Assembly: GCA_023660035.1 (NCBI GenBank) | Contig: JAGXOF010000002.1 | Location: 1 to 38,116 of the forward strand | Length of the DNA stretch: 38,116 bases | Source of the DNA: Dehalococcoidia bacterium LH_S1 | GTDB lineage: Bacteria > Chloroflexota > Dehalococcoidia > SZUA-161 > SpSt-899 | Direction: 5' to 3' | Part shown: positions 2,914 to 31,184 of the stretch, one piece after another | How positions within the stretch are numbered: the first letter of the stretch is position 1 | Layout: the number at the start of each line of letters is the position of its first letter | Notes under the pieces: model-generated | Databases searched by the model: none | Seen by the model: the letters and a program-made list of their open reading frames with translations, nothing else | What the model was told of the DNA's origin: nothing | Position numbers and translations under genes: made by a program

Positions 2914-2933
2914 TACTGTTATAGGGAAGGATT

Positions 2934-3683: not shown

Positions 3684-3690
3684 ACTGGAG

Positions 3691-6005: not shown

Positions 6006-6016
6006 ATCGCACCCGC
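5989..6016. repeat. Perfect 28-bp palindrome spanning the LTD gene stop codon
   Basis: GCGGGTGCGATT-CATG-AATCGCACCCGC forms a 12-bp perfect stem with loop CATG and no following U-tract. It lies 14 nt before the exosortase start. Confidence 0.85.
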
Positions 6017-6029
6017 CTCTAATATAAAG

Positions 6030-6857
6030 ATGACCAAAGTGAAACCGGGCGCGTTTATCGGTCCGTTCATCATCCTTGCCTTCCTGATTCTTCTCTATTT
6101 TCCCACCTTCCAGTGGATTGTAAACTCATGGCTTCACTCCAGCTATTACTCACACGGGTTTCTCATCATCCCTATCGCTGCCTTTATTGCCTGGACCCGG
6201 AGAGGTGAACTGAGACAGGCCGCGCCTTCTCGCATTGGTATATGGGTTCTTATTGCGGGTTTGGCCCTCTACGTGAGTGGTGTGCTTTATGCGTCTGACT
6301 TTCTTCGTGCACTATCGTTCTTGGTAGTCATTTCGGGACTCGTACTCTATTTCCGCGGCAGGAAAACCTTCAGGGCCCTTGCCTTTCCTATATGCTTCCT
6401 TATCTTTATGATCCCTTCCCCTTCCTTGGACATGATTGGCTACTGGCTGCAGTCCTTTTCGGCTCAGTCCTCTGCATGGGTCATATCGCAATTTGGTATC
6501 CCTGTAACTAGGACAGGTGCCGAAATCCATCTCGGAAATGCATCATTCGTTGTCGGTATGGCATGTAGCGGTTTGAACAGCTTGATCGCTCTTTTGGCAT
6601 TGGCGGCTCTCTTCGCATATGTCCTCAAGAGGCCATTTGTGAAAAAGGTTGTGCTTTTTGCCTTGTCTGTTCCTGTTGCGCTGTTTGCTAACTTGCTCCG
6701 GTTGGTTACCTTGCTTCTCATAGGTCACCACTGGGGAAGCGACTATGCTACCGGGTTTATGCACACTGCTTTCAGTCCGCTCTTCTTCATCGTCTCTCTG
6801 GTGTGTTTAGTTCTTGTGGCGAGGTTGCTTGGATTGAGATTGTGGAAGGCAGCTTGA
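6030..6857 (+). CDS. Exosortase/archaeosortase-family integral membrane transpeptidase
   Basis: N-terminal YYSHGFLIIPIAAFIAW motif, candidate catalytic Cys in GMACSGLNSLIALLAL, and downstream ANLLRLVTLLLIGHHWG carrying the conserved Arg and His. Polytopic, 275 aa. Confidence 0.8.
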   Translation: MTKVKPGAFIGPFIILAFLILLYFPTFQWIVNSWLHSSYYSHGFLIIPIAAFIAWTRRGELRQAAPSRIGIWVLIAGLALYVSGVLYASDFLRALSFLVVISGLVLYFRGRKTFRALAFPICFLIFMIPSPSLDMIGYWLQSFSAQSSAWVISQFGIPVTRTGAEIHLGNASFVVGMACSGLNSLIALLALAALFAYVLKRPFVKKVVLFALSVPVALFANLLRLVTLLLIGHHWGSDYATGFMHTAFSPLFFIVSLVCLVLVARLLGLRLWKAA

Positions 6858-15581: not shown

Positions 15582-15797
15582 TCACATAGGCTTTACCCAT
15601 ATAGCATTAAAAGGGCAAGCCTCGGAGCAATCACCGCAGCCCAGGCACAAGTCCGGCGACTTGAGCATCGGAGGATCATATGGTTCCTGCTGTCTGAGCA
15701 CTCTCAGATCACACACAGACACAGCAACACAAACCCCGCCGTCGCACTTCTCGGGCATGCATTTTTGGAAATCTACCACTGCTCTGGGTTTTGGCAT
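15582..15797 (-). CDS. Small 4Fe-4S ferredoxin-like protein
   Basis: CMPEKCDGGVCVAVSVC plus CLGCGDCSEACP cluster motifs. 71 aa. The start overlaps the upstream stop (TAATG). Confidence 0.6.
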   Translation of the reverse strand: MPKPRAVVDFQKCMPEKCDGGVCVAVSVCDLRVLRQQEPYDPPMLKSPDLCLGCGDCSEACPFNAIWVKPM

Positions 15798-16302: not shown

Positions 16303-16713
16303 CTAATGCCGTAACGATAATTCCCGTTCTCGCTCACACCACGGGCAATAGCCCTTAAGATATAACTCAGTCTTTGTAATGTTAAACCCGTGTTCCCTCT
16401 GTGCTGCTTCCACAAGCTGATTAACAAGGGGGGTTTCGAACTCAACTATCTTGCCACATCCCTGACACACCACGTGGCAATGATCCAGCTTCCCGCTCAC
16501 CTCATAGCAGTAGTGTCTCTGACCAAGGGACCTCTCATCAACTATTCCCAATTCCTTGAACAGATTCAAGCTGCGATAAACGGTAGCCGTGCTAACAGAG
16601 TTACCCTGGGCATTAGCCCGACGATATAGCTCCTTAGCATCTATATGTCCATTCACTTCACTAATCAACTTCAGAAGCAACTGGCGCTGAGAACTCTGCC
16701 GATAATTCTCCAC
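16303..16713 (-). CDS. Fur-family metalloregulator (Fur/Zur/PerR/Nur subtype not assignable)
   Basis: N-terminal winged helix (TVYRSLNLFKELGIV), HCHVVCQGCGKIVEF and YCPWC zinc-site Cys pairs. 136 aa. Confidence 0.88.
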   Translation of the reverse strand: MENYRQSSQRQLLLKLISEVNGHIDAKELYRRANAQGNSVSTATVYRSLNLFKELGIVDERSLGQRHYCYEVSGKLDHCHVVCQGCGKIVEFETPLVNQLVEAAQREHGFNITKTELYLKGYCPWCERERELSLRH

Positions 16714-16741: not shown

Positions 16742-16756
16742 TGAGAATCATTCTCA
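16742..16756. promoter_or_regulatory. Perfect 7-1-7 Fur-family operator
   Basis: TGAGAAT-C-ATTCTCA is a perfect inverted repeat with the same architecture as TGATAATnATTATCA-type boxes. It abuts the -10 element of the fur-family gene promoter. Confidence 0.7.
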
Positions 16757-17163: not shown

Positions 17164-17193
17164 TTGACAGGTAATATCTACATATGCTATATT
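17164..17193 (+). promoter_or_regulatory. Candidate promoter of the tetrapyrrole super-operon
   Basis: TTGACA (17164-17169)-N18-TATATT (17188-17193), 40 nt upstream of the ATG at 17234. It overlaps an imperfect inverted repeat GTAATAT (17171-17177)/ATATTAT (17189-17195). Confidence 0.5.
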
Positions 17194-17233
17194 ATCAACT
17201 AGATTTGTATTTAAGCAAATTAGGTTGTTCAAT

Positions 17234-18268
17234 ATGCCACAAACAGGGGTGATCATCCTAGCTCATGGGAGCCGCGGCGAGCGAGGTGTTGTAGAAGTCT
17301 CCGAGACCTTGAGAAGGGTTAGTGAGGGGGTGAAGCCCATGTTGCGACCGGGAGTAAAAGTTATTGGGGCAGCACTCCAATTTAACCACCCCAGCCTAGA
17401 AGAAGCCGTGGAGTCTTTGGCAGGGTGGGGTGTCAATCGGATGGTAATAATGCCCTACTTTCTTTTCCCAGGACGACACATTACTGAGGATATCCCTCAG
17501 CTTATTGAGCGGCTTAAGTGCACCTATCCAGAAACACAATTCATTATAACCGATATCCTCGGCTTGAATGAGCATTTTATCGATCGAGTGGCAAAATGCA
17601 TAGAGAAGGCTGCCCCCGAGCTTTCGGCGAAAGCTCGGGGTTCATCTAGCTCTGCTGAGGCGATCGAGTACCAAAGTCTAGAAATAATAGAGGGTTTGCT
17701 GCCGTCACTGGACTGCTCTGAGGAGGAACGTCAGGTAATAAAGCGCATTGTCCATGCCGCCGGCGACTCCCAAATCGCCCGTCTTGTCCGGTTTCATACC
17801 AATGCGGTCTCTGCGGGTATTGACACCATTCGCCAAGGAAAGCCGATATTCACCGACGTCAGGATGGTAGCCGTAGGTATCAATCCCCATCTCACTCAAG
17901 AGTTTGGCTGTTCCATACATTGCGCTCTAGATGAACTGAATACGATGGGACAGGCTCAAGAGGAAGGTGTTACCCGAAACGCTGCTGCTATCCGCTTTCT
18001 AGGAAGAAAGCTCGATGGGGCAATTGTTACCATTGGCAATGCCCCTACCGCTTTACTTGCCCTACTCGAGCTAATTGACAGTGGAGATGTTCTGCCGTCT
18101 CTCGTTGTAGGAATGCCTGTCGGCTTTGTGCAGGCTAGGGAATCGAAGGCAGACTTAATTAAGCGGAACATACCCTATATCACCATTGAGGGAACTCGGG
18201 GGGGGAGCGCAGTAGCTACAGCTACAGTCAATGCACTGCTAAACCTTGCCCGGGAGATTCACAAATGA
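17234..18268 (+). CDS. cbiX/cbiC: Fusion protein: small CbiX-type sirohydrochlorin cobaltochelatase (N) plus cobalt-precorrin-8 methylmutase CbiC (C)
   Basis: N-terminal about 125 aa: VIILAHGSRGERG...MPYFLFPGRHITEDIP (CbiX small). C-terminal about 210 aa: IVHAAGD..., IFTDVRMV, GNAPTALLALLELI, VVGMPVGFVQARESKA, EGTRGGSAVATATVNAL (CbiC/CobH). Confidence 0.85.
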   Translation: MPQTGVIILAHGSRGERGVVEVSETLRRVSEGVKPMLRPGVKVIGAALQFNHPSLEEAVESLAGWGVNRMVIMPYFLFPGRHITEDIPQLIERLKCTYPETQFIITDILGLNEHFIDRVAKCIEKAAPELSAKARGSSSSAEAIEYQSLEIIEGLLPSLDCSEEERQVIKRIVHAAGDSQIARLVRFHTNAVSAGIDTIRQGKPIFTDVRMVAVGINPHLTQEFGCSIHCALDELNTMGQAQEEGVTRNAAAIRFLGRKLDGAIVTIGNAPTALLALLELIDSGDVLPSLVVGMPVGFVQARESKADLIKRNIPYITIEGTRGGSAVATATVNALLNLAREIHK

Positions 18269-19353
18269 ATGGATTATCATCACCCAAAAAACCAAGATTG
18301 AAGGAACTGGTGCTGTGGGTTACCACCGACTGTAACCTCCGCTGCCGTTACTGCTACGCCAATGGCGGCGACGAGACGGAATACATGGATTGGCAAGTGG
18401 CAAAGCAAGCCCTGGACCTCATGCTCAGCCATTCTGATGGTTTTAAGGTTCAGTTCGCCGGCGGTGAGCCACTGCTCAACGTGGACTTGATTGAGCAGGT
18501 GGTGCGCTACACTCAGGGCTGGGGCGTTGCCTATCAGCTCCAAACCAACGCCACCCTCATCGATACCAGCACTGCCAGAAGCCTCAAACGGCTGGGAATA
18601 GATGTGGGTGTGAGCCTTGACGGACTACCAACGGTAAATGACTCTTTGCGTCCTTATGCCGATGGGCATGGCTCGACGGCTGCCACCATAGCCGGGCTAG
18701 AGAAGCTTCGGGTGGCTGGTATTCATGTGGGGCTGACCTGCGTCCTCTCGGCGGAGAATGTCACTGGATTGCCCGGACTAGTCGAGCTTGCCAGCTACTT
18801 GGGAAATGTAGAGGGCATTACTTTTGACCTGTTGCGGCCGATAGGAAGAGCTAAGAAGGGGAAAGTGAGGCAAGCAGACCCTGCTTTGGCAGCCCGCTTT
18901 GTAAGTGCCGCTCTCAGGCGGGCGGATGAGTTGGCACTTATAGGCGGAAGAAGGGTAAGGTTTCGTGAGGTAGAGCGTATTAACTATTTTCTTTCTCATG
19001 GGGTGGAGCGCAAATATCGCTGTTATTTCGACGCTTCCCAATATCTAGTGGTAGACCCCAAAGGCAGTGCTTATCCTTGTCCCTCCTTGACAAGTTTCCC
19101 TGAGTTTTACCTAGGCAATGTTCTGGAGCCGACCTTCATCAATGGTTTGGATGCTAATTTGAGGAGGTGCCGAGGGCTTATCACCCTACCCCATTATTGC
19201 TCTACCTGCTCTGAACGTTGGCTCTGTGCTGGCCCGTGTCCCGCCCAGACCTATGCACAGCAATTAACTGGGGAGATAAAGCCGACCGAGTGTTATATCA
19301 AAAGAGTGTTCATTGATTACGCTAGAAGAAAGGAGGTAATAAATCATGCCTAG
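18265..19353 (+). CDS. Radical SAM enzyme with C-terminal SPASM/twitch-like Cys-rich domain, function unassigned
   Basis: CNLRCRYC (CX3CX2C) near the N-terminus, GGEPLL motif, and C-terminal YRCYFDA...GSAYPCP...CSTCSERWLCAGPCPAQ...C. Overlaps both neighbouring genes. Confidence 0.85.
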   Translation: MNGLSSPKKPRLKELVLWVTTDCNLRCRYCYANGGDETEYMDWQVAKQALDLMLSHSDGFKVQFAGGEPLLNVDLIEQVVRYTQGWGVAYQLQTNATLIDTSTARSLKRLGIDVGVSLDGLPTVNDSLRPYADGHGSTAATIAGLEKLRVAGIHVGLTCVLSAENVTGLPGLVELASYLGNVEGITFDLLRPIGRAKKGKVRQADPALAARFVSAALRRADELALIGGRRVRFREVERINYFLSHGVERKYRCYFDASQYLVVDPKGSAYPCPSLTSFPEFYLGNVLEPTFINGLDANLRRCRGLITLPHYCSTCSERWLCAGPCPAQTYAQQLTGEIKPTECYIKRVFIDYARRKEVINHA

Positions 19354-21433
19354 ATTAGTCTATCCCTTTAGCGCCATTGTGGGGCAAGAGAACATGAAGA
19401 AGGCGTTGCTACTCAATGCTATCAACCCCAGGATCTGGGGGGTGCTTCTTCGAGGTGAAAAGGGGACGGCTAAGTCCATAGCGGTGCGAGCTCTGGCTCA
19501 ACTCCTTCCTCAAATTAAGGTGGTATCTGATTGTCCCTTTTCCTGTGAAACTGAGCGTGAAGATGGTCTATGTGACACTTGCGCTGCCAGAGTAGCTAAG
19601 GGTGAGAAGCTCGGTGTTGCCTGGAGGCAGGTATCGGTAGTAGACATGCCAATAGGGGCTACCGAGGACAGGGTTGTAGGCACACTTGACATCGAGAGGG
19701 CAATCAAAACCGGAGAGAAGCACTTCGAGCCAGGACTTCTGGCTGCTGCCAATCGGGGCATCCTATACATCGACGAGGTGAACCTGCTGGATGACCATCT
19801 GGTGGATGTTTTACTTGATGCCGCTGCCATGGGGATGAACTTTGTGGAGCGGGAGGGAATCTCCTTCAGTCATCCGGCGCAATTCATCCTGGTGGGCACC
19901 ATGAACCCCGAGGAGGGTGAGCTCCGCCCTCAGTTGCAGGATCGCTTTGGACTGGCAGTAGAGGTCAAAGGTATTCAGGACCAGGAGGCCAGGGCAGAGG
20001 TGGTCAGGCGACGCATCGCCTTTGAGAGGGACCCCATAGCCTTTGCCGCTACCTACGAGAAGGAACAAGAGGGGATACGACAACAAGTTACGGAGGCCAA
20101 GAAACTGCTACCCGCGGTGCAGCTCAGTGAGGAGATGCTGAAGCTCATTACTCAGATATGCATTGACTTCGCTGTTGATGGTCACCGCGCTGACATTGTG
20201 ATACATAAGACTGCTACTACCCTTGCTGCCTATCATGAGAGAACCGAGGTAAATGAGGAGGATGTGAGGGAGGCGGTTGAGCTAGCACTTCTTCACCGCC
20301 GTCGCCGCCAGCCCTTTGAGGAGCCGGAGCTAAGTCAGCAGCAGCTTGAGGAGAGCATTCAAAGGTGGCGTCAGAATCAGGAGAATCACCCTGAAGATAA
20401 GCAGGAGCAAGAAGAGGAACAAGACTCTCCACCCACCAACACGCCTCGGCATAATGATATCAATGATTCACCTGAAGAAGAGGAACAAGACTCTCCACCC
20501 ACCGATACGCCTCCACATAGCGACACCAATGATTCACCTGAAGATGGGGAAAAGCCCCAAAGAGAGCAAACCTTTGAAGCTGAGCCACCATACAAGGTAA
20601 GACCGCTGGTTGCTCCTGTGCTGGATCAGATTTCTCGGAGTGAAACAGGACGACGGTCAAAGAGCAGGACGAGTTCCAAAACTGGGCGCTATGTGGACAG
20701 CACCATTCCTCGGGGAAAAACAAGCGACCTTGCTTTTGATGCTACCCTGCGAGCGGCAGCCCCCTTCCAAGTGCAGAGGAGGGAGGAAATGCCAGGACAG
20801 AATACGCTGCTTATTAAGAGTCACGACCTGCGAGAAAAGGTGCGTGAGAGAAAGGTGGGAAATCTTATTGTGTTTATCCTCGATGCCTCAGGCTCGATGG
20901 CCGCTGAGGAGAGGATGGTAGCTACCAAGGGAGCTGTTCTGTCCCTATTACTTGATGCCTATCAGCGGCGGGACCGGGTGGGGATGGTGGTCTTCCGAGG
21001 GGAGAAGGCAGAGCTGGTGTTGCCTCCCACCAACAGTGTGGAGCTGGCACAAAAATATCTCAACCATCTTCCCACCGGCGGGCGCACCCCCCTGGCTCAC
21101 GGGCTAAAGCTGGGGCTGGACACCATTAAGGAATATTTGTGGAGAGATAAACAGGCCCTTCCCTTGGTGGTCTTGGTTTCCGATGGGAGGGGAAATGTAA
21201 GTCTTAATGGGAGTGACCCAATTGAGGAAGCCAAGAGAATAGCCCAGGAGATAAGAGCAATGAATATCAGGTCGATCGCCATTGATACTGAGCAAGGCTT
21301 CGTTACTTTCAGGCTGGTAGCGCAAATCTGCACTGAACTGGGAGGAACCTACCTGCGGCTGGAGGAACTAAAATCCGCTCCCATAGCCTCTGCCGTGAGG
21401 GGTAACCTGGGCTATGCAGATGAAAGGGGATGA
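19346..21433 (+). CDS. Class I chelatase ATPase/vWA subunit (ChlI/BchI-like AAA+ module fused to ChlD/BchD-like vWA module)
   Basis: [16 protein letters not shown], Walker A GEKGTAKS, Walker [10 protein letters not shown], acidic/Pro-rich linker, vWA domain with MIDAS DASGSM and VLVSDGRGN. 695 aa. Confidence 0.88.
20411..20542 (+). repeat. In-frame 66-nt tandem duplication inside the chelatase linker
   Basis: Units 20411-20476 and 20477-20542 differ at about 8 of 66 positions. They encode [22 protein letters not shown] and [22 protein letters not shown]. Confidence 0.9.
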
Positions 21434-21514: not shown

Positions 21515-21688
21515 ATAGCAAATTTGAAAGGAGGAAAGTTGATGAAAAAGATAATACTAATAGCAGTTGCTGTTGCTCTGGTGGTAAGCCTCTTTGCTGC
21601 CTCATGTGCTCCTAAAAGGGAGGAAGAGGCTTTACCAAAGTCGATCTCCATTGTTGACTCGGCGGGGAGAACTGTTGAGGTTCCTCAA
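21515..21688 (+). repeat. Copy 1 of the near-identical 5' UTR/RBS/signal-peptide block shared by the two SBP genes
   Basis: About 174 nt, nearly identical (a handful of substitutions and one 3-nt indel) to 22628-22798. Identity collapses abruptly after GAGGTTCC. Confidence 0.9.
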
Positions 21689-22627
21689 CCTTTGAATAAG
21701 GTTATCGTCGTTTACAGCCATCTTCTGCTCACAACGAAGGGTTTGGGCATAGGTGACGAGGTGATAGTTGGCCTCGACGAATTTACACTCGGTCAGTATA
21801 AAGAGATTTTCCCTGGATTGAGCGAAAAGCCCACGATTGGGCAAAATTTCTTCCACCTGGATCTTGAAAAAATAATCGCTCTTGACCCTCAAGTTTTGAT
21901 TACCCTTCCATTCGCCTTGAAGAAATTGCCAGAGCTTGAAGCCACACTTGAAAGTGCGGGGATAAAAGTGGTGGCGCTAGATTTCAAGCTTGGGAATGTC
22001 CAAGATGTGATAAAGACGCTAGGAAAGATGTTCGGCAAGGAGAGAAGGGCTGAGGAGTACAGTGAGTTCTGGTTTAGCAAGCTAGACATGGTTCAGGAAA
22101 GGGTGAACGCGCTTAAGGATGAAGAAAAGGTCCGGGTTTACTGGGAAAATACCATGACACCCTATAAGACAGTCTCTAAGGAGGGGAAGCCGCATGAGCT
22201 ACTGAATATGGCCGGCGGGTTAAACATTGCTCAAGACCTTATGGGAAGCTATCCTGAGGTAGACCCAGAATGGGTCATCACCCAAGACCCAGATATGATA
22301 CTGAAGTATCCCATGGGAGCGGAGTATCAAGGGGGATTTGGCAAGACCGATACCGAGCCATTCGAGGAGATGAGACACGAAATAATGGAACGGCCTGGTT
22401 TTGACCAGATAAAGGCAGTAAAGGAAGGGAAGGTTTACATTCTATCTCAGATCATTAAGGGAGGGGCGTTTGAAAATGTGGGAATATGCTATATCGCTAA
22501 GCTCCTTTACCCCGACCTCTTTAAAGACCTCGACCCCGAAGCCTACCTTGAAGAGATGATAGAGGAATACTACGGTTTGAATTTTGATGAGGTGAAGGGG
22601 GTCTTTGTATACCCCAAGCCTTTCTAA
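21542..22627 (+). CDS. ABC transporter substrate-binding lipoprotein, FecB/BtuF (chelate-binding) family, paralogue 1
   Basis: Lipoprotein signal MKKIILIAVAVALVVSLFAASC. Periplasmic-binding-protein type 2 pattern (VDSAGRTVEVP..., DPQVLIT, KVYIL). ATG at 21542 preceded by AAAGGAGGA. Confidence 0.8.
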   Translation: MKKIILIAVAVALVVSLFAASCAPKREEEALPKSISIVDSAGRTVEVPQPLNKVIVVYSHLLLTTKGLGIGDEVIVGLDEFTLGQYKEIFPGLSEKPTIGQNFFHLDLEKIIALDPQVLITLPFALKKLPELEATLESAGIKVVALDFKLGNVQDVIKTLGKMFGKERRAEEYSEFWFSKLDMVQERVNALKDEEKVRVYWENTMTPYKTVSKEGKPHELLNMAGGLNIAQDLMGSYPEVDPEWVITQDPDMILKYPMGAEYQGGFGKTDTEPFEEMRHEIMERPGFDQIKAVKEGKVYILSQIIKGGAFENVGICYIAKLLYPDLFKDLDPEAYLEEMIEEYYGLNFDEVKGVFVYPKPF

Positions 22628-22798
22628 ATAGCAAATTTGAAAGGAGGAAAGTTGATGAAAAAGATAATACTAATAGCAGTTGCTCTTGCTCTGGTGGTAA
22701 GCCTCTTTGCTGCCTCATGTGTTCAAAAGGAGGAAGAGGCTTTACCAAAATCAATCACCATTGTTGACTCGGCGGGGAGAACTGTTGAGGTTCCCCAG
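22628..22798 (+). repeat. Copy 2 of the shared 5' block
   Basis: See 21515-21688. Confidence 0.9.
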
Positions 22799-23722
22799 CC
22801 GCTGGAGAGGATAGCTGTTTGGAATGGTGCGGTTGCTGAGGTAATTCGTGCCCTTGGTGCGGCGGATAAGATTATTGCTATCAACAAGTATATGCCTAAA
22901 GACGATTATTACTGGCCGGGGCTGAAGGATAAGCCCCAAATAGGTAGCCCTTGGAGCATCGATTATGAAAAAATTGTAGAACTTAGCCCTCAAGTCTTGA
23001 TCACCTATTCTAAATATCCTTCAGGTACGGAACTGGAGGAGAAGCTAGAGCCTGCCGGAATCAAAGTGGTCAGATTGGATTGTTATGGACTGGAAGATGA
23101 AATCAGAGACATAAAAATCCTGGGCGTATTACTTGACAGAGAGAAAGAGGCTGAGGAGTTCGCCAGTTTCCTTCAGTCCAAAATTGACCTTGTAGACGAG
23201 AGGATAAATGAAATAGAGCCTGAGGAAAGGGAAAGAGTTTACTGGGAAATGGGGCATAAAGACTACTATACAGTCGCTGAGGGTTCTGCTGCTCACAAGC
23301 GCCTTTGCAGAGCAGGGGGGATCAATGTTTTCGCTGGTATGGGTGTGTCATATTCGGAGATAGACCCTGAAGAAATTCTGATGAAGGAACCTGATGTGGT
23401 TATTAAGGACCCACATGGCACTAAAGTTGGAGGTTACACAGCCACCGAGACCAGCGATATGGAAGCTAAAAGGGATGAGATGATGAACCGTGCTGCTTGG
23501 AGTGAGCTCAAGGCGGTGAAGAATGGAGAGCTATATATAATGGGTGACGACCTCATGGGGGCTACGGACCCGATACGGCTTTGCTATTACGCCAAACTCC
23601 TCTATCCCGATAGATTTGAGGATTTGGATGTTGAGGCTTTTCACCGGGAGTATATGGAAAAGTATCAGGGTTTAGAGTTCAAAGGGATATATGTATATCC
23701 ATGTCCCTGGAAGGCTGAATAG
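22655..23722 (+). CDS. ABC transporter substrate-binding lipoprotein, FecB/BtuF family, paralogue 2
   Basis: Same signal peptide and first roughly 45 residues as paralogue 1. After that, by eye, only roughly a third of residues are identical. Confidence 0.8.
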   Translation: MKKIILIAVALALVVSLFAASCVQKEEEALPKSITIVDSAGRTVEVPQPLERIAVWNGAVAEVIRALGAADKIIAINKYMPKDDYYWPGLKDKPQIGSPWSIDYEKIVELSPQVLITYSKYPSGTELEEKLEPAGIKVVRLDCYGLEDEIRDIKILGVLLDREKEAEEFASFLQSKIDLVDERINEIEPEERERVYWEMGHKDYYTVAEGSAAHKRLCRAGGINVFAGMGVSYSEIDPEEILMKEPDVVIKDPHGTKVGGYTATETSDMEAKRDEMMNRAAWSELKAVKNGELYIMGDDLMGATDPIRLCYYAKLLYPDRFEDLDVEAFHREYMEKYQGLEFKGIYVYPCPWKAE

Positions 23723-23797: not shown

Positions 23798-24874
23798 GTG
23801 GCATCAAAGACGGAAGCGGTTGAGGCGAAGGAGGCATATGCCAAGCTTACCGGCAGGAAGGTACTTTTTATCCTGGTAGGGCTCGGGGGTGTGGTGGCCT
23901 TGGTCTTGGTAGCAACCTCTCTTGGCTCAGCCGACTTGGGGGTGAGCAGTGTAGCCTCTGCTATCGCTGCCAGGATATTTCCCTTCCTTGATCTAGAGGT
24001 AAGCACTAAGGTAGATGTCATCGTTTGGGGTATAAGGCTACCCCGAGTTGTTCTGGGGGTGGTTGCTGGAGCGGGACTAGCCGTCTCTGGGGCAGCGATG
24101 CAGGGAATTATGCGAAACCCTTTAGTAAGCCCCTTTACCTTAGGTATATCCTCAGCGGCTGCCTTCGGAGCATCTATAGCCATTGTCCTGGGAATGGGAA
24201 TGGTTGGCAGTGAAAAATATCTCATAATTACCAATGCCTTTGTCTTTGCTCTGCTGGCCGCCTTTCTGGTCTATGGTCTTGCCAGAATAAGAGGTATGAG
24301 ACCGGAGACATTGATTCTAGCAGGAATCGCCTTGATGTATTTCTTTTCTGCCGCCACTTCGCTGCTGCAATACATTGCCACCAAAGAAGAGCTCCAGACA
24401 GTAATTCACTGGCTTTTCGGAAGCCTTACCGGAGCAAGCTGGGAGAACATATTGATAGTTGTAATTATCTCCTTCTCCTGCCTTCCCTTTTTGATAAAGT
24501 ATTCCTGGGATGTGAATACCATGGTTGCCGGTGATGATGTAGCTACTAGTCTTGGGGTAAATCCCCGCAGGGTAAGGACGGTTTATATGGCACTGGCGAC
24601 TCTGATTACCGCCGGAATCATCTGCTTTACCGGGATTATCGGCTTTGTTTGCCTGGTAGCGCCGCACATAACCCGCATGATAATCGGAGCCGACCACAGA
24701 TTTCTGCTCCCCAGCTCCTGTATCATGGGAGGGCTTTTGCTCCTGGGAGCTGATACCCTGGGCAGGACTGCTTTTCAACCGGCCATAATCCCGGTGGGGA
24801 TAGTGATCTCAGTTATCGGCGTTCCCTTTTTCCTTTTTTTAATTTTGAGAACAAGGAAGGAGTATTTTCAATGA
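23798..24874 (+). CDS. FecCD/BtuC-family ABC permease
   Basis: Polytopic 358-aa protein with typical FecCD strings (RLPRVVLGVVAGAGLAVSGAAMQGIMRNPLVSPFTLGISSAAAFGA; FTGIIGFVCLVAPHITRMIIG). GTG start. Confidence 0.88.
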   Translation: MASKTEAVEAKEAYAKLTGRKVLFILVGLGGVVALVLVATSLGSADLGVSSVASAIAARIFPFLDLEVSTKVDVIVWGIRLPRVVLGVVAGAGLAVSGAAMQGIMRNPLVSPFTLGISSAAAFGASIAIVLGMGMVGSEKYLIITNAFVFALLAAFLVYGLARIRGMRPETLILAGIALMYFFSAATSLLQYIATKEELQTVIHWLFGSLTGASWENILIVVIISFSCLPFLIKYSWDVNTMVAGDDVATSLGVNPRRVRTVYMALATLITAGIICFTGIIGFVCLVAPHITRMIIGADHRFLLPSSCIMGGLLLLGADTLGRTAFQPAIIPVGIVISVIGVPFFLFLILRTRKEYFQ

Positions 24875-25704
24875 GGCTAGAAATAAAGGATATACAATTC
24901 AACTACGGAAGCGTGCCTGTCCTGGAGGATATCAGTCTGGGTATAAAGGGTGGGGAGGTGTTGAGCCTGGTAGGCCCCAACGGTTCGGGTAAGACTACCC
25001 TGTTAAAGTGTATAAACAGGATTTTGAAGCCCAAAAGGGGGACTATACTAGTAGAAGGCAAGGATGTAACCAGGGTGGGGTTAAAGGAGCTTGCCCGCTC
25101 TCTGGGTTATGTCCCTCAAAGCGCTCTCTCTTCCTTCCCCCTTACGGTCTATGATACAGTTCTTCTGGGGAGAAAGCCACATGTGAATTGGAAGTTAGGT
25201 GAAAGGGATAAGGGGATAGCCTTTGGAGTGCTCAGGCTAATGGAACTCGATGATATGGCGCTCAGGCTGGTTAGCGAATTGAGCGGGGGGGAAAAACAGA
25301 AGGTGCTTATGGCAAGGGCGCTCGCACAGGAGCCTCAGGTTCTGCTTCTTGATGAGCCAACAAGCAACCTCGATTTAAGACACCAGCTTGAGGTTTTGCA
25401 TCTTATCGTGGATATGGTGAAGGAGAGGGGTTTATCGGCAGTAATGGCAATGCATGACCTAAATCTGGCTTTAAGATTCTCGAGCAAGATAGCAATGGTA
25501 AAGGGCGGCAAGATATACGCCGCTGGTGAACCCAGGGCAGTTCTTAACTCAGGTAACATAAGAGAGGTATATGGAGTTGAAACCACCATAAGTAGTGATT
25601 CAGGGAGACCCTACATTATACCTTTGACTTCGACGGGAAAAACTTCCAGGACGAAGGTCGTATCAAAAAGAATGATTCGGGAAGACCTTACATTATACGT
25701 TTAA
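24871..25704 (+). CDS. ABC ATPase of the chelate importer (FepC/BtuD-like)
   Basis: Walker A GPNGSGKTT, signature LSGGEKQ, Walker B LLLDEPTSNLD. ATGA overlap with the permease gene. The C-terminal tail is reshaped by a tandem duplication. Confidence 0.9.
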   Translation: MRLEIKDIQFNYGSVPVLEDISLGIKGGEVLSLVGPNGSGKTTLLKCINRILKPKRGTILVEGKDVTRVGLKELARSLGYVPQSALSSFPLTVYDTVLLGRKPHVNWKLGERDKGIAFGVLRLMELDDMALRLVSELSGGEKQKVLMARALAQEPQVLLLDEPTSNLDLRHQLEVLHLIVDMVKERGLSAVMAMHDLNLALRFSSKIAMVKGGKIYAAGEPRAVLNSGNIREVYGVETTISSDSGRPYIIPLTSTGKTSRTKVVSKRMIREDLTLYV

Positions 25705-25757: not shown

Positions 25758-28700
25758 ATGGAAAAGGCAAGGATAGCTTATTTTACCACCGGCGGAGCGG
25801 ATGTCATTCCCCTCGTCTCAGCAGTTAGAGCCATAACTGAGGAGAAAGGAGAGATTATAGAGGTCTGCCTCCGAACCAGGGAGGATTTCATGCAACCGGG
25901 CAAGTTGGAAGAGTTTATCCATTTCGCCCAGGAATGCCATCTAGTTATCCTGCATCTTATGGGAGGCAAGAAGAGCTTCTCTGACTTTGACAAGTTTATG
26001 TCTTCGCTAGAGGGTAAGGGCATTCCCATCTATGCCCAGGGGTCGGGTGGCGAGCTGGACACGGAATTAGTCCGCCTTTCCACCGTGGATAAGGATGACT
26101 ACCAGGGAATCTCCCGCTATATCAATTACGGAGGAACTGAGAACTTCAAGAATCTTCTCCTGCATATAGCAAATCGTTTTGCTGGTGCCAATTACGAGCT
26201 TATGGGGCCTGAGAGACCCCCCTGGGAGGGAATCTATCACCCTGATTTTGACTACCTGCCAACATTGGATGAATACCTGGAGAAAAAGCATATAGCCGGT
26301 CGGCTCACTGTGGGGCTCTGGTTTTATCAAAGTTTCTGGCAAGCCAGAAACACCGTCTTTGTAGATAGACTAATCGAGGAGATTGAAAAGCAAGGGGCAA
26401 ACGTCATCCCAGTATTTCTTTATAGTGTTAAGGATATAGACCTCGGCACTAAAGGAGCGGAGTGGGTGGTTAAGAACTACTTTATGAAAGATGGTGAGCC
26501 CCTAATCGATGTCTTGATTAGTCCCTTGATGTTCTCCTTGTCTATGAGGGTGTCCCAGAGTCCAGAGGGCAGTGAGGTGATACCACAGGAGAATGAAGGA
26601 TTCTTAAACAGGCTGGGAGTGCCTGTGATAAAGGCAATCTTAACCTACAATACCCTGGAGGAATGGCGGGATACCTTGCAGGGGCTAAATCCCATGGATG
26701 TGACTATGAGTATAGCCATGCCTGAGTTCGATGGCATGTTGATTACAGTGCCGGTAGCTGCCAGAAACTTCTCTGATACCGACCCCTTAACCGGAGCCAG
26801 AATAGTCAGGTATGAACCCATCGGCGAAAGGGTCAGCAAGGTCGTTCGTCTGAGTCTGAACTGGGCAAGGCTGAGGCACATCCCCAGCAACGAAAAAAAG
26901 GTGGCTATCATCTTCCACAACTATCCACCGCGAAACGACCGAATTGGCACTGCCTTCGGATTGGATTCCCCGGTTTCGGTGTGGAACATCCTGCGCGACA
27001 TGAAGGAGGCAGGATACGAACTGGATTGCCTGCCCGAAAGTGGGCAGACTTTAATTGAGGACATAATTGAACGGGTCACTAACGACCGTAGGTGGGCAAG
27101 CCCTGAGGAGATGGCAAAAAGGGCAGTGGACAAGGTTTCTCACCAGCAATACATGGGATGGTTTCAAGAGCTTCCAGAGGAAGTGCAAAGTAAAATGGTG
27201 CGGGCTTGGGGTAAGCCTCCGGGTAAGCTCTTCAACCACAGGAACAAGCTACTTATCCCAGGACTCATCAACGGCAACATCTTCATCGGGCTCCAGCCAC
27301 CCAGAGGATTCTTGGATGACCCCGCTGCCATTTATCACAGCCCCGACCATCCCATGCCCCACCACTACTACGCCTACTATCGCTGGATACGGGATGTGTT
27401 CGGAGCCAATGCAGTTATGCATATCGGCAAGCACGGCTCCCTGGAGTGGCTACCAGGAAAATCGGCAGGTCTTTCCGAATCCTGTTTCCCTGATATCGCC
27501 ATCTCTGATTTGCCCAATATCTATCCCTACATCATCAATAACCCCGGCGAGGGCACCCAGGCAAAGAGGAGGAGCTACTGCTGCATCATTGACCACCTGG
27601 TTCCGGTGATGCACAACGCCGATACCTACGAAGAGATAGCCGGGCTGGAAGTGCTAATAAACGACTATAAGCACGCCACTGTTGAAGACCGGGGGAAAAT
27701 TCCAGAATTACAGAAAATGATATGGGAGAAGACTTGCCAAGCCAAGCTGGACCATGACCTGGAAATTGACGAAGCGGCGGCTTTTGCTGATTTTGACGGC
27801 TTCCTGGAGAAGCTGCATGGCTATATAGACGAACTGGCGGATACCCAGATTAGAGAGGGACTGCATACCCTGGGTGAGCCACCGGTTGATTCGCGCCTGG
27901 ACGAGTTCTTGGTCGCCCTGACCCGGCTAAGCAATGGTGATGTGTCCTCACTAAGGCAATCCCTGGCTGAGATGAAGGGTTACGATTATGATGGCCTCCT
28001 GGCAAACAGAGGAAAGCTGCAATCCGATGGCAAAAGCAACGGGGACATAATTGAAGAGCTAAACGAAGTCTCCTTACAGCTTGTGCAGAGGCTTCACAAC
28101 GAGGGATTCAGGGAGGAGAGCATTGATACTATAGCCAATGAAATATTGGGGCAGAGCAATTCAAATATTAGAAGAGTGTTAACCTATATTGCAAATTCCA
28201 TTGCCCCCAATATTGCCGCTGCCACTGATGAATTAACTAATACCCTGTTGGCTGCCAGTGGGGAGTTTATTCCACCCGGTCCCTCGGGTGCCCCTACCAG
28301 AGGGATGGCTGATATTCTGCCCACAGGCAGAAATTTCTACTCCTTAGACCCCCAGACTATACCCTCTCCTGCTGCCTGGAGGGTGGGGGTGGCTCAGGGT
28401 GATGCCCTGCTGGAGCGCTATCTGAAGGACGAGGGGAAATATCCTGAGAACATCGGCATTATCATCTGGGGAAGCCCCACTATGAGAACCAAGGGGGACG
28501 ACATTGCTGAAATCTTTTACTTAATGGGTGTTAAGCCAATTTGGGAAGAGAGTAGCGGAAGAGTGAGGGGAATTGAGGTTATTCCCCTTGAGGAACTGGG
28601 TCATCCCCGCATTGATGTTACCCTTCGTATCAGCGGACTCTTCCGGGATGCTTTCCCCAATATCGTTCACCTTATTGACGAGGCAGTGGAGATGGTATAC

Positions 28701-29570
28701 AATCTTGACGAAGCTCGGGAGATGAATTACCTGACCAAGCATGTTCGGGAAGAGACGGAGGAAAGGATAGCGGCAGGCATGAATTTTGAGCAAGCAAGGG
28801 AGGAAGCTGGCTACCGTATTTTTGGCTGCAAACCAGGGGCTTATGGTGCCGGAGTCAGCGATGCCATAGATGCTAAGAACTGGAAGGATGAGAAAGACCT
28901 GGGTGAGATTTATGCGGTTTGGGGTGGTTACGCCTACGGGAAAAAGAATTACGGAGCAACGGTGCCTGAGCAGTTCAAGAAGCGCTTGAGCCAGCTTGAT
29001 TTAACTGTCAAAAACGAGGATACACGGGAATACGATATGCTGGATAGCGATGATTTTTATTCCTTTCACGGGGGAATGATTGCCGCCGTCAAGGCCTTCA
29101 AGGGGGAGCTACCCCAGTCATATAGCGGTGATGCCTCTGACCCCGACCGGGTGAAGGTAAGAAGCACGGCCGAGGAGACCAAGCATATCTTTAGAGCCAG
29201 GATTCTCAACCCCAAGTGGATTGAGAGCATGAAGCGCCATGGCTACAAGGGTGCAGGAGACATCTCTCGAATGGTGGATATAGCATTTGGCTGGGATGCC
29301 ACTGCTGAGGTACTGGAAGACTGGATGTATGAGGAGCTGGCCAAGAAATATGCCCTGGACAAGGATATGCAGGAGTGGCTAAAAGAGGTCAATCCCTATG
29401 CTCTCCAGAACATCGCTGAAAGGCTACTGGAAGCTATCGAGAGAGACATGTGGCAGGCAACAGAGGAAATGAAGCAAGAGCTACAGAATATTTATCTGGA
29501 TATTGAAGGGATGCTGGAGGAAAGCCAGTCAAAGGGAGAGAGAGCAGGGAATGAAGGAGGAAGGGATTGA
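25758..29570 (+). CDS. cobN: CobN-family large chelatase subunit (class I chelatase porphyrin-binding subunit)
   Basis: 1270 aa. CobN/ChlH-like strings such as IFHNYPPRNDRIGTAFGLD, MHIGKHGSLEWLPGK, YIINNPGEGTQAKRR and LNPKWIESMKRHGYKGAGD. Confidence 0.9.
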   Translation: MEKARIAYFTTGGADVIPLVSAVRAITEEKGEIIEVCLRTREDFMQPGKLEEFIHFAQECHLVILHLMGGKKSFSDFDKFMSSLEGKGIPIYAQGSGGELDTELVRLSTVDKDDYQGISRYINYGGTENFKNLLLHIANRFAGANYELMGPERPPWEGIYHPDFDYLPTLDEYLEKKHIAGRLTVGLWFYQSFWQARNTVFVDRLIEEIEKQGANVIPVFLYSVKDIDLGTKGAEWVVKNYFMKDGEPLIDVLISPLMFSLSMRVSQSPEGSEVIPQENEGFLNRLGVPVIKAILTYNTLEEWRDTLQGLNPMDVTMSIAMPEFDGMLITVPVAARNFSDTDPLTGARIVRYEPIGERVSKVVRLSLNWARLRHIPSNEKKVAIIFHNYPPRNDRIGTAFGLDSPVSVWNILRDMKEAGYELDCLPESGQTLIEDIIERVTNDRRWASPEEMAKRAVDKVSHQQYMGWFQELPEEVQSKMVRAWGKPPGKLFNHRNKLLIPGLINGNIFIGLQPPRGFLDDPAAIYHSPDHPMPHHYYAYYRWIRDVFGANAVMHIGKHGSLEWLPGKSAGLSESCFPDIAISDLPNIYPYIINNPGEGTQAKRRSYCCIIDHLVPVMHNADTYEEIAGLEVLINDYKHATVEDRGKIPELQKMIWEKTCQAKLDHDLEIDEAAAFADFDGFLEKLHGYIDELADTQIREGLHTLGEPPVDSRLDEFLVALTRLSNGDVSSLRQSLAEMKGYDYDGLLANRGKLQSDGKSNGDIIEELNEVSLQLVQRLHNEGFREESIDTIANEILGQSNSNIRRVLTYIANSIAPNIAAATDELTNTLLAASGEFIPPGPSGAPTRGMADILPTGRNFYSLDPQTIPSPAAWRVGVAQGDALLERYLKDEGKYPENIGIIIWGSPTMRTKGDDIAEIFYLMGVKPIWEESSGRVRGIEVIPLEELGHPRIDVTLRISGLFRDAFPNIVHLIDEAVEMVYNLDEAREMNYLTKHVREETEERIAAGMNFEQAREEAGYRIFGCKPGAYGAGVSDAIDAKNWKDEKDLGEIYAVWGGYAYGKKNYGATVPEQFKKRLSQLDLTVKNEDTREYDMLDSDDFYSFHGGMIAAVKAFKGELPQSYSGDASDPDRVKVRSTAEETKHIFRARILNPKWIESMKRHGYKGAGDISRMVDIAFGWDATAEVLEDWMYEELAKKYALDKDMQEWLKEVNPYALQNIAERLLEAIERDMWQATEEMKQELQNIYLDIEGMLEESQSKGERAGNEGGRD

Positions 29571-29574
29571 CTGA

Positions 29575-30429
29575 ATGATTATCATCGAAAAGCTCACCAA
29601 GGTATATGGCGAGGTTAGGGCGGTTAAGAAACTGAACCTGGAAGTATATTCGGGCGAGATTTTTGGCTTTTTGGGTCCCAACGGTGCTGGGAAAACCACC
29701 ACTCTCCGCATCCTGACCACCCTGACCAAGCCAACATCGGGGTGTGTCTGGATAAAAGGCTTCGATGTAATCACTCAGCCCCTTCAGGTAAAGGGAGAGT
29801 TTGGGGTAGTACAGCAACACCTGAGTTTGGATCGAGAGCTAACGGTGTGGGAGAACATGGAACTCCATGCCCGGTTGCATCACATTGGGGGTGTAGAGCG
29901 GCGGCGCCGCATCGCCGAGCTATTGGATTATGTGGAACTCAGCCAGTACGCCAATCAAATAGTTGAAAATCTTTCGGGTGGAATGAAGAGGCGACTGATG
30001 ATTGCCCGCGCCCTTATACATCGCCCCAAGCTACTTTTCCTTGATGAGCCTACGGTAGGGCTGGATGCTCAGACGCGGCGTCGCCTGTGGGAATTGATCC
30101 GACGGATGAACCTCGACGGCGCCACCGTTTTTCTCACCACCCACTATATTGAGGAGGCCGAGGCTCTCTGTCACCGCGTGGGAATCATTTACCAGGGACA
30201 GCTTATTGCCCTCGGCAGTCCTCTAGAACTGCGTCAGCAAGTGGGCATGACCACCGTGGAAACGCTTTCTGATAATAAGGATCCCGACTATCACTACTTT
30301 TCAGACAGAGCAGCAGCAACGGCCTACGTTCAGAGTTTGCCTCCTGAAGTCAAGACTATCACCACACGAGACTCCAATCTGGAGGATGTATTTGTGGAAT
30401 TAACCGGACGAAAGGTAGGCGACGATTAA
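29575..30429 (+). CDS. ABC-2-type exporter ATPase
   Basis: Walker A GPNGAGKTT, LSGGMKRRL, LLFLDEPTVGLD. DrrA/CcmA-like architecture with a C-terminal regulatory extension. Confidence 0.85.
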   Translation: MIIIEKLTKVYGEVRAVKKLNLEVYSGEIFGFLGPNGAGKTTTLRILTTLTKPTSGCVWIKGFDVITQPLQVKGEFGVVQQHLSLDRELTVWENMELHARLHHIGGVERRRRIAELLDYVELSQYANQIVENLSGGMKRRLMIARALIHRPKLLFLDEPTVGLDAQTRRRLWELIRRMNLDGATVFLTTHYIEEAEALCHRVGIIYQGQLIALGSPLELRQQVGMTTVETLSDNKDPDYHYFSDRAAATAYVQSLPPEVKTITTRDSNLEDVFVELTGRKVGDD

Positions 30430-30481: not shown

Positions 30482-31174
30482 TTGAGACACCTCTGGCAAC
30501 GTTTCCTCATTACCAGCCTGATGAGTCCACTGCTCTATCTTCTCGCCTTTGGCTACGGGCTGGGAAGAGGTATGGAAGTTGAAGGGGTAAGCTATCTTGA
30601 GTTTGTGATTCCAGGGATCATTGCCCTTACCGCCATGACCACGAGCTTTAATAGTGCCGGAATGAAGCTGAATGTAGACCGGCTTTTTTACAAATGTTTT
30701 GATGAGATTTTGATGGCTCCGGTAAGCCCGTTATCCTTGATACTTGGGAAGTCCCTAATAGGTGTCCTGCGAGGACTTATCGTCTCCCTGGTTTTCCTGA
30801 TAATAGGCATAGCTATCTCTCCAATGAAGGTTAGTCCGCTTTTCATATTGCCCCTGTTGCTCACTTGCTTCACCTTTTCCTTCATGGGTGTTCTGGCTGC
30901 CCTGCTGGCAAAATCGCATCAGGATATGGCCACCTTCAGCAGCCTAGTGCTGTTACCGATGACTTTTCTTGGTGGCACCTTCTTCTCTTCAAGCCAGTTG
31001 CCACAGGCGCTAAAGGTTATCCTATATATCATCCCACTGACTCATTCCAGTCAATGCCTGCGAGCGGTAACTCTTGGGCAGCCTTTCCCTTGGCTCTCTT
31101 TATTAGCTATTGTGGGCTTCGGGCTAGCCTTCTTTGTCGGGTGCGTGATGGTGCTAAGGAGGGCCAGTGTATAA
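30482..31174 (+). CDS. ABC-2-type exporter permease (true start probably upstream, possibly ATT at 30425)
   Basis: Six-TM ABC-2 pattern. The frame is open from 30419, and the upstream codons (KVKVLKDSYSVWWADLRIL) look like a genuine ABC-2 N-terminus. Confidence 0.8.
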   Translation: MRHLWQRFLITSLMSPLLYLLAFGYGLGRGMEVEGVSYLEFVIPGIIALTAMTTSFNSAGMKLNVDRLFYKCFDEILMAPVSPLSLILGKSLIGVLRGLIVSLVFLIIGIAISPMKVSPLFILPLLLTCFTFSFMGVLAALLAKSHQDMATFSSLVLLPMTFLGGTFFSSSQLPQALKVILYIIPLTHSSQCLRAVTLGQPFPWLSLLAIVGFGLAFFVGCVMVLRRASV

Positions 31175-31184
31175 AGGGGAAGCA

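Follow-up and report, generated by a model that had tools for sequence, protein, structure and literature searches.

We analyzed a 38,116-nucleotide stretch of the genome of Dehalococcoidia bacterium LH_S1 (contig JAGXOF010000002.1, positions 1 to 38,116), which we will term the window. Our subject is a gene at 18265-19353 for a radical S-adenosylmethionine (SAM) enzyme of the SPASM type, which we will term rSAM. It lies in a string of cobaltochelatase, transport, and tetrapyrrole genes, and its relatives travel with CobN, the large subunit of the class I chelatase. All of the genes from a promoter-like site at 17164-17193 to the end of the window are on the + strand. The features of this region are as follows:

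16303-16713, − strand: Fur-family regulator, divergent from the operon (Pfam FUR, 102 bits; no NCBIfam subfamily cut-off reached)
16742-16756, no strand: perfect 7-1-7 palindrome TGAGAATCATTCTCA, Fur-box-like, in the intergenic region between fur and cbiX-cbiC; the sole exact copy in the window
17164-17193, + strand: sigma-70-like promoter match TTGACA-18-TATATT, TG-extended, the best of the region and 32 bp before cbiX-cbiC (a consensus match, at 11 of 12 positions)
17225-18268, + strand: CbiX(small)-CbiC fusion, with class II sirohydrochlorin chelatase and precorrin-8 methylmutase domains (Pfam CbiX 74 bits, CbiC 238 bits)
18265-19353, + strand: rSAM, a radical SAM/SPASM enzyme of a CobN-linked clade (open reading frame, or ORF, of 362 amino acids with an ATG start)
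19346-21433, + strand: ChlI/ChlD fusion of the cobaltochelatase type, with an AAA+ motor and a VWA domain (NCBIfam TIGR02442, 846 bits against a cut-off of 779)
21524-22627, + strand: substrate-binding lipoprotein 1 (Pfam Peripla_BP_2, 99 bits), a tandem paralog of lipoprotein 2
22637-23722, + strand: substrate-binding lipoprotein 2 (Peripla_BP_2, 113 bits)
23798-24874, + strand: importer permease of the FecCD/BtuC type (Pfam FecCD 300 bits; top NCBIfam match BtuC, 252 bits, under its cut-off)
24871-25704, + strand: importer ATPase (top NCBIfam match "corrinoid ABC transporter ATPase," 231 bits, under its cut-off)
25758-29570, + strand: CobN, class I chelatase large subunit, 1270 amino acids (Pfam 1410 bits; TIGR02257, 1088 bits against 822)
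29575-30429, + strand: ABC ATPase of an ABC-2 type exporter, from a recurrent ATPase/permease pair
30482-31174, + strand: ABC-2 permease (Pfam ABC2_membrane, 85 bits)
31167-37810, + strand: co-directional genes for a SirC (precorrin-2 dehydrogenase)-HemA fusion, HemC, a CobA-HemD fusion, HemB, and HemL (Pfam matches)

The start codon of rSAM overlaps the stop codon of cbiX-cbiC by 4 nt (ATGA, at the junction cacaaATGAatgg), and its end overlaps the start of the ChlI/ChlD gene by 8 nt (at the junction aaggaggtaataaatcATGCCTAG), so that the Shine-Dalgarno sequence of ChlI/ChlD (an AGGAGG box) sits within the 3' end of rSAM. These overlaps bear out the original prediction, made from the sequence of the window alone, that rSAM is an integral member of the operon. 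It had also placed a class I chelatase next to rSAM. This holds for the small and medium subunits, which adjoin it as the ChlI/ChlD fusion, but the large subunit, CobN, lies 6.4 kb downstream.

The CX3CX2C motif that had been noted in the 362-residue product (CNLRCRYC) contains the ligands of the radical SAM cluster (C23, C27, and C30), and these were invariant in alignments of 20 and of 76 homologs. The SAM-binding motif GGEP (G66-G67-E68-P69) was also without variation in the 76 homologs. Similarly, the C-terminal cysteines that had been taken to be of the SPASM type proved to be a fixed set: seven cysteines (C253, C272, C312, C315, C321, C325, and C343) and G267 were invariant across the 76 homologs. 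Their spacing is the canonical SPASM arrangement, CX13GX4C...CX2CX5CX3C...C (the pattern used to test for the subfamily was CX9-15GX4C...). The protein scores 64.9 bits against the Pfam model Radical_SAM (PF04055; gathering score 29.5) and also matches Fer4_12. Against the Pfam SPASM model (PF13186) it scores 19.8 bits, which is just below the gathering score of 21.5; for several of the homologs, a match to PF13186 has been precomputed. A structure predicted by AlphaFold2 from 76 sequences has a mean predicted local distance difference test (pLDDT) score of 94. Its best matches in the PDB are two SPASM enzymes, CteB (template modeling, or TM, score of 0.79-0.81) and the anaerobic sulfatase-maturing enzyme anSME (TM score of 0.74-0.78), and a profile search of the PDB sequences ranks these in the same order. 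Motifs and predicted fold together identify the protein as a bona fide radical SAM/SPASM enzyme, with two predicted auxiliary clusters.

To see which genes accompany rSAM, we gathered loci by exact-protein look-ups, a scan of one genome per species, and local tblastn with ORF clustering, with flanks of about 10 kb. This gave 52 non-redundant loci whose homolog is at least about 29% identical to the window protein. (We number loci L004, L006, and so on.) CobN is present in 45 of the 52 loci, at a median distance from rSAM of 35 bp, and 51 of the 53 copies of CobN are on the same strand as rSAM. Most of the loci that lack CobN are contigs that end beside the rSAM gene. We found the ChlI/ChlD fusion in 27 loci and ChlI as a protein of its own in 24, and rSAM often lies between the genes for chelatase subunits, in the order CobN-rSAM-ChlD-ChlI. 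By contrast, CobN is absent from all 31 loci of the sister clade (L057-L087), whose homologs are 26-38% identical to the window protein. In a neighbor-joining tree of 88 homologs, one clade holds all of the CobN-linked sequences together with the window protein, and the other clade is unlinked. Also, the pairwise distances of rSAM proteins and of their neighboring CobN proteins are correlated (Mantel r = 0.51; none of 2000 permutations gave as high a value). The linkage of rSAM, ChlI/D, and CobN, for which a test across genomes had been suggested, is conserved across phyla and in both prokaryotic domains. We conclude that the rSAM clade is a dedicated partner of the CobN-ChlI/ChlD cobaltochelatase and is nearly always adjacent to it.

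The clade is found in Dehalococcoidia, Clostridia (Desulfovirgula, Neomoorella, Desulfofundulus, Acetobacterium, Oscillospiraceae, and Lachnospiraceae), Negativicutes (Phascolarctobacterium and Pectinatus), Actinomycetota (Thermoleophilia and a metagenome-assembled genome, or MAG, from Actinomycetes), Latescibacterota, Chlorobium, Treponema, and Methanothrix and other Methanosarcinales. We take all of these carriers to be strict anaerobes. The recurrent module consists of CobN, rSAM, ChlI/ChlD, and the ABC-2 exporter, while a BtuFCD-like importer, CbiZ or CbiR-like enzymes, a CN-hydrolase, CbiK/CbiX, and CbiC are variable. Among the 52 loci, a binding protein is present in 28, a FecCD permease in 24, and an ABC-2 permease resembling the window's in 18; the ABC-2 exporter pair also occurs in L088, L090, and L093. 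Other companions are less frequent (CbiZ in 9 loci, CbiK in 5, CbiC alone in 4, and the CbiX-CbiC fusion in 2), and CbiA, CbiB, and CbiMNQ(O) also appear. In L089, from a relative whose rSAM is 68% identical, the module comes right after a run of cbiD, genes for four corrin methyltransferases, cbiG, cbiA, cobD, cbiP, and cbiB, and cobT comes next. The setting is specific to cobalamin: entire cbi clusters, or CbiC, CbiZ, CbiA, CbiB, or CobT, are among the neighbors of rSAM orthologs.

The chelatase is of the cobalt type. Both CobN (TIGR02257) and ChlID (TIGR02442) pass the cobaltochelatase cut-offs, and they do so in the same gene string of the window. Compared to proteins in the PDB, the window's CobN scores 878 bits with CobN from M. 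tuberculosis, 530 with ChlH, and 369 with HmuS (in the C-terminal part only). The ChlI module contains a further marker: residues 61-82 of the window's ChlI/D form a four-cysteine insert (CPFSC-x8-CDTC), and an insert of this form (C-x-[FY]-x-C-x8-9-C-x2-C) is found in every ChlI module of our loci except that of Chlorobium. It is missing from the ChlI/BchI structures of magnesium chelatase, and it is present in the ChlID proteins of Ralstonia solanacearum and Haloferax mediterranei (L094 8989-9330 and L095 9001-9342), whose cob clusters do not contain an rSAM of this clade. Because it occurs in these ChlID proteins without an rSAM nearby, we regard the insert as a signature of cobalt-type ChlI. 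It may be a zinc or iron-sulfur site that is diagnostic of cobalt-type chelatase motors.

A third line of evidence comes from regulation. In 10 of the 27 bacterial loci that we scanned (L004, L006, L012, L013, L017, L019, L045, L052, L089, and L092), the gene string that includes rSAM is directly preceded by a co-directional cobalamin riboswitch (Rfam RF00174), and in three of these (L012, L089, and L092) no other gene stands between the riboswitch and rSAM. In the Latescibacterota locus L006, a CbiX/CbiC-rSAM pair like that of the window is behind the riboswitch. Furthermore, an operon of this kind has been shown to respond to corrinoid starvation. In Dehalobacter restrictus, the riboswitch-preceded operon-2 was induced 346-fold at the transcript level, and its proteins increased by 17- to 83-fold, including a 17-fold increase for the radical SAM protein Dehre_0290 (Rupakula et al., 2015, PMC4285132 and its supplements). 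Dehre_0290 appears only in the supplementary tables of that study, and its authors did not propose a function for it. From fepD onward, the gene string of operon-2 recurs in Dehalobacter sp. DCM with near-identical gene lengths, and the rSAM encoded there shares 38% identity with the window protein (E = 1e-69). Given the gene string and this counterpart, Dehre_0290 is evidently the ortholog of the window's rSAM. Operon-2 differs from the window in that it includes CbiZ and lacks CbiX-CbiC, and its host is a corrinoid auxotroph. In many lineages, then, rSAM is a member of the B12 regulon.

What kind of enzyme is rSAM? The original prediction pointed to the tetrapyrrole enzymes AhbC, AhbD, and NirJ, and it proposed profile hidden Markov model (HMM) placement against these, the sulfatase maturases, and the peptide maturases; membership in the AhbD/NirJ group, together with AhbA/B/C elsewhere in the genome, would have made it an enzyme of ordinary alternative heme synthesis. 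The rSAM protein falls far below all of the cut-offs, and no NCBIfam or Pfam subfamily cut-off is reached. For the tetrapyrrole models, the scores (and cut-offs) are 77.5 bits (500) for AhbD, 87.3 (650) for AhbC, 89.1 (515) for NirJ, 81.9 (650) for NirJ1, and 88.5 (500) for NirJ2. With 77-89 bits against cut-offs of 500-650, we can rule out that rSAM is AhbC, AhbD, or NirJ. Nor are their partners at hand: as had been noted for AhbA/B, neither AhbA/B nor NirDLGH was found among the window ORFs that we scanned or among the recurrent neighbors in the 52 loci. It is not anSME either (TIGR03942, 95.3 bits against a cut-off of 349.45, and no sulfatase in any locus). The models for maturases of ribosomally synthesized and post-translationally modified peptides (RiPPs) score 137 bits for PapB (cut-off 340), 120 for nif11, and 115 for SCIFF, and the QhpD model scores 99-113 bits. 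Scores below the cut-offs, the lack of a RiPP recognition element (RRE), and the lack of a conserved precursor ORF also exclude the known families of RiPP maturases. Among 8000 candidates that were scored in the protein database, about 1600 relatives of rSAM were found at E ≤ 1e-10. The closest, at 70-80% identity, are from Dehalococcoidia, and relatives at 47-60% identity are from Latescibacterota, Thermoleophilia, Peptococcaceae/Desulfofundulus, Methanothrix, and Methanosuratincola. Close relatives are unnamed, annotated as "radical SAM protein," or misnamed as "MoaA." By these sequence comparisons, rSAM represents an uncharacterized radical SAM/SPASM family outside every described family.

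We propose that rSAM assists the anaerobic CobN chelatase as an accessory enzyme and acts on a corrinoid or tetrapyrrole macrocycle; we put the probability of this at roughly one half, and its substrate, direction, and chemistry are inferred. The N-terminal [4Fe-4S] cluster would cleave SAM to give a 5'-deoxyadenosyl radical, which would abstract a hydrogen atom, and the two SPASM clusters would relay an electron, by analogy to anSME or AhbD. The target would be the macrocycle on which the chelatase works (a corrinoid or tetrapyrrole), and the reaction is probably a radical, two-electron oxidative change of that macrocycle, as this chemistry is typical of SPASM enzymes without an RRE (anSME and AhbD). 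The closest functional analogies would be AhbC, AhbD, and NirJ, which combine the radical SAM and SPASM domains without an RRE in about 340-390 amino acids, act on siroheme-derived substrates, and are encoded in the tetrapyrrole clusters of anaerobes. They differ from the window's rSAM in that its partner is CobN, its orthologous operons are controlled by cobalamin rather than heme, and the window contains neither ahbA/B nor nirDLGH. There is also a conceptual likeness to ChuW/HutW, HemN, and BchE, the radical SAM enzymes that anaerobes use where aerobes use oxygenases (as with CobG/CobZ). ChuW, for example, opens heme and so releases iron without oxygen. However, these enzymes belong to the HemN-like or B12-binding classes and do not contain SPASM domains, and we saw no homology to rSAM beyond the core.

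This proposal has three versions. In version (a), rSAM tailors a corrinoid that is salvaged or lacks cobalt, and thereby allows CobN to insert the metal, which would be a branch for late cobalt insertion or re-metalation without oxygen. Version (a) fits with a true corrin-type CobN and with the recurrence of CbiC and CbiA beside the module, as the CbiC and CbiA steps flank that of CobN in the late-insertion route. The aerobic CobN systems that lack rSAM are as expected if rSAM replaces oxygen-dependent chemistry. Version (a) is the likeliest of the three but still tentative. In version (b), rSAM labilizes an imported corrinoid, the chelatase runs in reverse (as in HmuS) to recover the cobalt, and the ABC-2 pump exports the remains. 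This would give every recurrent companion a role: the importer, CbiZ or the CbiR-like enzyme, the CN-hydrolase, the exporter, and CbiK/X, which would accept the cobalt. We consider version (b) rather unlikely. In version (c), which we think is improbable, rSAM acts on the Co(II) product. A related idea, that rSAM replaces the corrinoid adenosyltransferase, is weakened by the presence of cobA (Dehre_1606) elsewhere in the D. restrictus genome. We did not find an adenosyltransferase in the ten previously unassigned neighboring ORFs that we scanned, in a scan that could not exclude one.

Several observations weigh against our proposal or its versions. Aerobic and haloarchaeal CobN-ChlID systems work without rSAM, and so the chelatase reaction does not inherently require it. 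No cobalamin riboswitch was found in the window, whether with the gathering score or with a threshold of E ≤ 10, and a Fur-family gene adjoins the operon; L088 and L090, the two closest relatives that we checked, also lack a riboswitch. As for the versions, the module hardly ever includes corrin methyltransferases, which speaks against (a); it costs far less to remodel a corrinoid than to destroy it, which speaks against (b); and D. restrictus already has cobA (PMC4285132), which speaks against (c). The present data do not separate the three, and under each of them one or another recurrent neighbor has no explanation. Finally, the nearest characterized relatives by both HMM score and fold are peptide or protein modifiers: PapB, nif11, SCIFF, and anSME outscore NirJ, AhbC, and AhbD, and the best PDB matches are CteB and anSME.

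This last point favors an alternative in which rSAM is a protein maturase that installs a cross-link or an oxidized residue in CobN, ChlD, ChlI, or some other product of the module. In both the PDB and NCBIfam, the best matches are protein or peptide modifiers, the QhpD model among them, and rSAM has an anSME-like plan (radical SAM and SPASM domains, no RRE, about 360 amino acids). The rSAM gene is often sandwiched between structural genes of the chelatase, and qhpD likewise sits between the structural genes of its complex, quinohemoprotein amine dehydrogenase. However, every maturase model is far under its cut-off (340-519 for anSME and CteB/PapB), no sulfatase or precursor peptide is nearby, and we found no target motif in the neighboring proteins that is specific to rSAM. 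We considered two candidate targets and rejected both. The sole invariant cysteine of the rSAM-linked CobN proteins, C576, is conserved across the superfamily (it is present in CobN from M. tuberculosis, in another CobN, and in ChlH), and the four-cysteine insert of ChlI is present in Ralstonia and Haloferax ChlID without such an rSAM nearby. These comparisons, which cover cysteine targets only, lend the maturase no positive support, and we consider it unlikely. A RiPP or metallophore maturase, which might act for instance on a cobalt-binding peptide that leaves the cell through the ABC-2 pump and returns through the FecCD system, is far less probable still. The top-scoring curated models are RiPP maturases and the module does hold an exporter and a chelate-type importer, but rSAM has no RRE domain (its radical SAM motif begins at residue 23), there is no intergenic space on either side of it in the window, and no small ORF is conserved across the loci. 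The absence of an adjacent precursor ORF had already been held against a RiPP maturase; we found no plausible precursor-peptide ORF in the window, and when 1099 small intergenic ORFs from the 52 loci were clustered, they were conserved only among close relatives, with some of the "families" being translations of riboswitches.

Another explanation is that the window's module is for the acquisition of iron from heme, with a Fur-controlled importer, CobN/ChlID as a dechelatase, and rSAM processing the porphyrin. The Fur-family gene and the perfect Fur-like palindrome by the operon, together with the lack of a riboswitch in the window, are in its favor. Also, HmuS shows that a CobN homolog can act as a dechelatase (PMC12583661), and the binding proteins of the window score on the model for the heme binder IsdE in addition to that for BtuF. 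But the window's CobN passes the cobaltochelatase equivalog, is far nearer to true CobN than to HmuS, and is cytoplasmic. HmuS/BtuS of the Bacteroidota, a CobN-like heme dechelatase that is encoded in a salvage locus and carries out the reverse reaction (PMC12583661), is periplasmic, membrane-anchored, and distant, and no radical SAM partner has been described for it. The CbiX-CbiC fusion in the same operon and the B12 riboswitches of orthologous operons point away from heme as well, and the palindrome is beside fur itself, about 30 bp upstream of its start and about 470 bp from the start of cbiX-cbiC. That the Fur-family protein regulates the operon can at most be inferred from its position. 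Overall, a role in heme acquisition seems highly improbable. The remaining probability belongs to explanations that are not listed here.

Returning to our proposal of a CobN accessory enzyme, it bears on an old question. According to papers that cite it, Rodionov et al. (2003) raised the question of why organisms that insert cobalt early keep the "late" chelatase CobN. Pfeiffer and Dyall-Smith (2021) described CobN in cobalt-early organisms as an open issue and guessed that it is involved in salvage, and many CobN homologs of archaea and anaerobes were called unexplained in the 2025 paper on HmuS (PMC12583661). None of the literature that we searched describes a radical SAM enzyme as a partner of CobN. 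As rSAM travels with exactly this chelatase, it offers an experimental handle on the question. We suggest, tentatively, that strict anaerobes have an oxygen-independent corrinoid branch around CobN-ChlI/D that depends on rSAM. In one alternative, which is cobalt-late or re-metalating, rSAM would supply the chemistry that aerobes obtain from oxygen (the role of CobG/CobZ) and allow ATP-driven, high-affinity insertion when B12 or cobalt is scarce. In the other, "cobalt mining," imported corrinoids would be stripped (by CbiZ or a CbiR-like enzyme and by CN-hydrolase), labilized by a radical, and de-metalated, and the ring would be exported. Either route, if real, would be a new B12 pathway and would explain the "aerobic" CobN of cobalt-early organisms. 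If rSAM acts on the macrocycle, no earlier step of corrin-ring metabolism is known to use a radical SAM/SPASM enzyme. The family appears to mark a step in how anaerobes make or recycle B12. It is real and widespread, and the enzyme family itself is new, although it is not a categorically new kind of enzyme. Among the organisms that carry it are propionate producers of the gut (Phascolarctobacterium), acetogens, organohalide respirers, and methanogens of the acetoclastic type, and the supply of corrinoids limits the metabolism of all of them.

Several other genes recur beside CobN and rSAM. At least 11 loci, from Firmicutes, Chlorobium, Thermoleophilia, and Methanotrichaceae, encode a CN-hydrolase (nitrilase/amidase superfamily) with a single or double domain, often as a 570-residue double-domain protein (L004 4465-6174; L014, L015, L021, and L056; L092 12880-13288; L036 10018-10794). 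In Desulfofundulus, the entire riboswitch-controlled operon is CN-hydrolase-CobN-rSAM. One possibility is that the CN-hydrolase acts on the side-chain amides of corrinoids. Three modules (L034 14932-15933, L039, and L056) include a xylose-isomerase-like TIM-barrel protein of 330 amino acids (AP_endonuc_2, 37 bits against 31); the superfamily, which is the level at which we can assign these proteins, includes the cobamide-remodeling phosphodiesterase CbiR.

In Phascolarctobacterium, a nitrogenase-like trio is directly upstream of importer-CobN-rSAM-ChlI-ChlD (L025 879-4249, and also L027, L029, L030, L031, L033, L037, L038, and L043). Its NifH-like protein scores 386 bits with the CfbC model (cut-off 402) and 391 bits with NifH (cut-off 394), and the other two proteins are divergent and NifD/K-, NifE-, or BchB-like; a TonB-dependent receptor and CbiK follow. 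In the Methanotrichaceae locus L015 (8081-9163), a 360-residue ORF between CobN and rSAM joins a NifD-like fragment to a NifH-like part. The similarities suggest that these genes form an uncharacterized tetrapyrrole-reducing system, like CfbCD, that is linked to the CobN-rSAM module. PQQ-like beta-propeller proteins are beside the chelatase genes in two loci (L091 8476-9975, from Peptococcaceae, just upstream of rSAM; and L095 11212-12441, from Haloferax, beside ChlID). Downstream of rSAM in a Clostridia MAG (L019 8068-13025), a second cobalamin riboswitch precedes two large S-layer-homology proteins, one of which has a DUF4430 domain; these are candidates for capturing corrinoids at the cell surface. 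No fusion of rSAM to a chelatase or corrin enzyme was found among the best 150 representatives from a library of 1.8 billion proteins; the long matches were tandem repeats of rSAM.

As for the other genes of the window, the bifunctional NCBIfam model scores 163 bits with CbiX-CbiC, under its cut-off. The genes for tetrapyrrole precursors (31167-37810) imply that the organism makes its own uroporphyrinogen III, precorrin-2, and sirohydrochlorin. In the first of these (31167-33101, 644 amino acids), the N-terminal and middle domains of siroheme synthase are fused to the glutamyl-tRNA reductase HemA, which puts the first step and a late step of sirohydrochlorin synthesis in one polypeptide. The two lipoproteins (21524-23722) are a tandem duplication: their first 30 residues or so are near-identical (MKGGKLMKKIILIAVA...FAASC, with a lipobox), and their mature parts have diverged. 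This suggests two ligand specificities that feed one permease. Their family, Peripla_BP_2, is common to siderophore, heme, and B12 binders, and matches in the PDB and NCBIfam do not separate these ligands for the window's binding proteins. Just upstream of the cluster, and on the same strand as fur, is a ferredoxin-like ORF of 71 amino acids (15582-15797, − strand; Pfam Fer4), which is a possible electron donor for rSAM; a small ferredoxin is also beside CobN or CobJ in the cob clusters of Ralstonia and Haloferax.

Two further observations are from the first 7 kb of the window. At 1924-4125, partial genes for PlsX (profile positions 1-91 of 324), a FabF-like N-terminal domain (90-240 of 252), and DegV (2-137 of 280) abut one another and an intact FabG, and these fragments are pseudogenes or are due to frameshifts or assembly errors. 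At 5229-6857, a secreted protein with a Lamin-tail domain and a C-terminal tail that resembles a sorting signal (PEP...TM...RR) is directly upstream of an exosortase gene of the EpsH family; the two are likely a cognate sorting pair, unrelated to rSAM.

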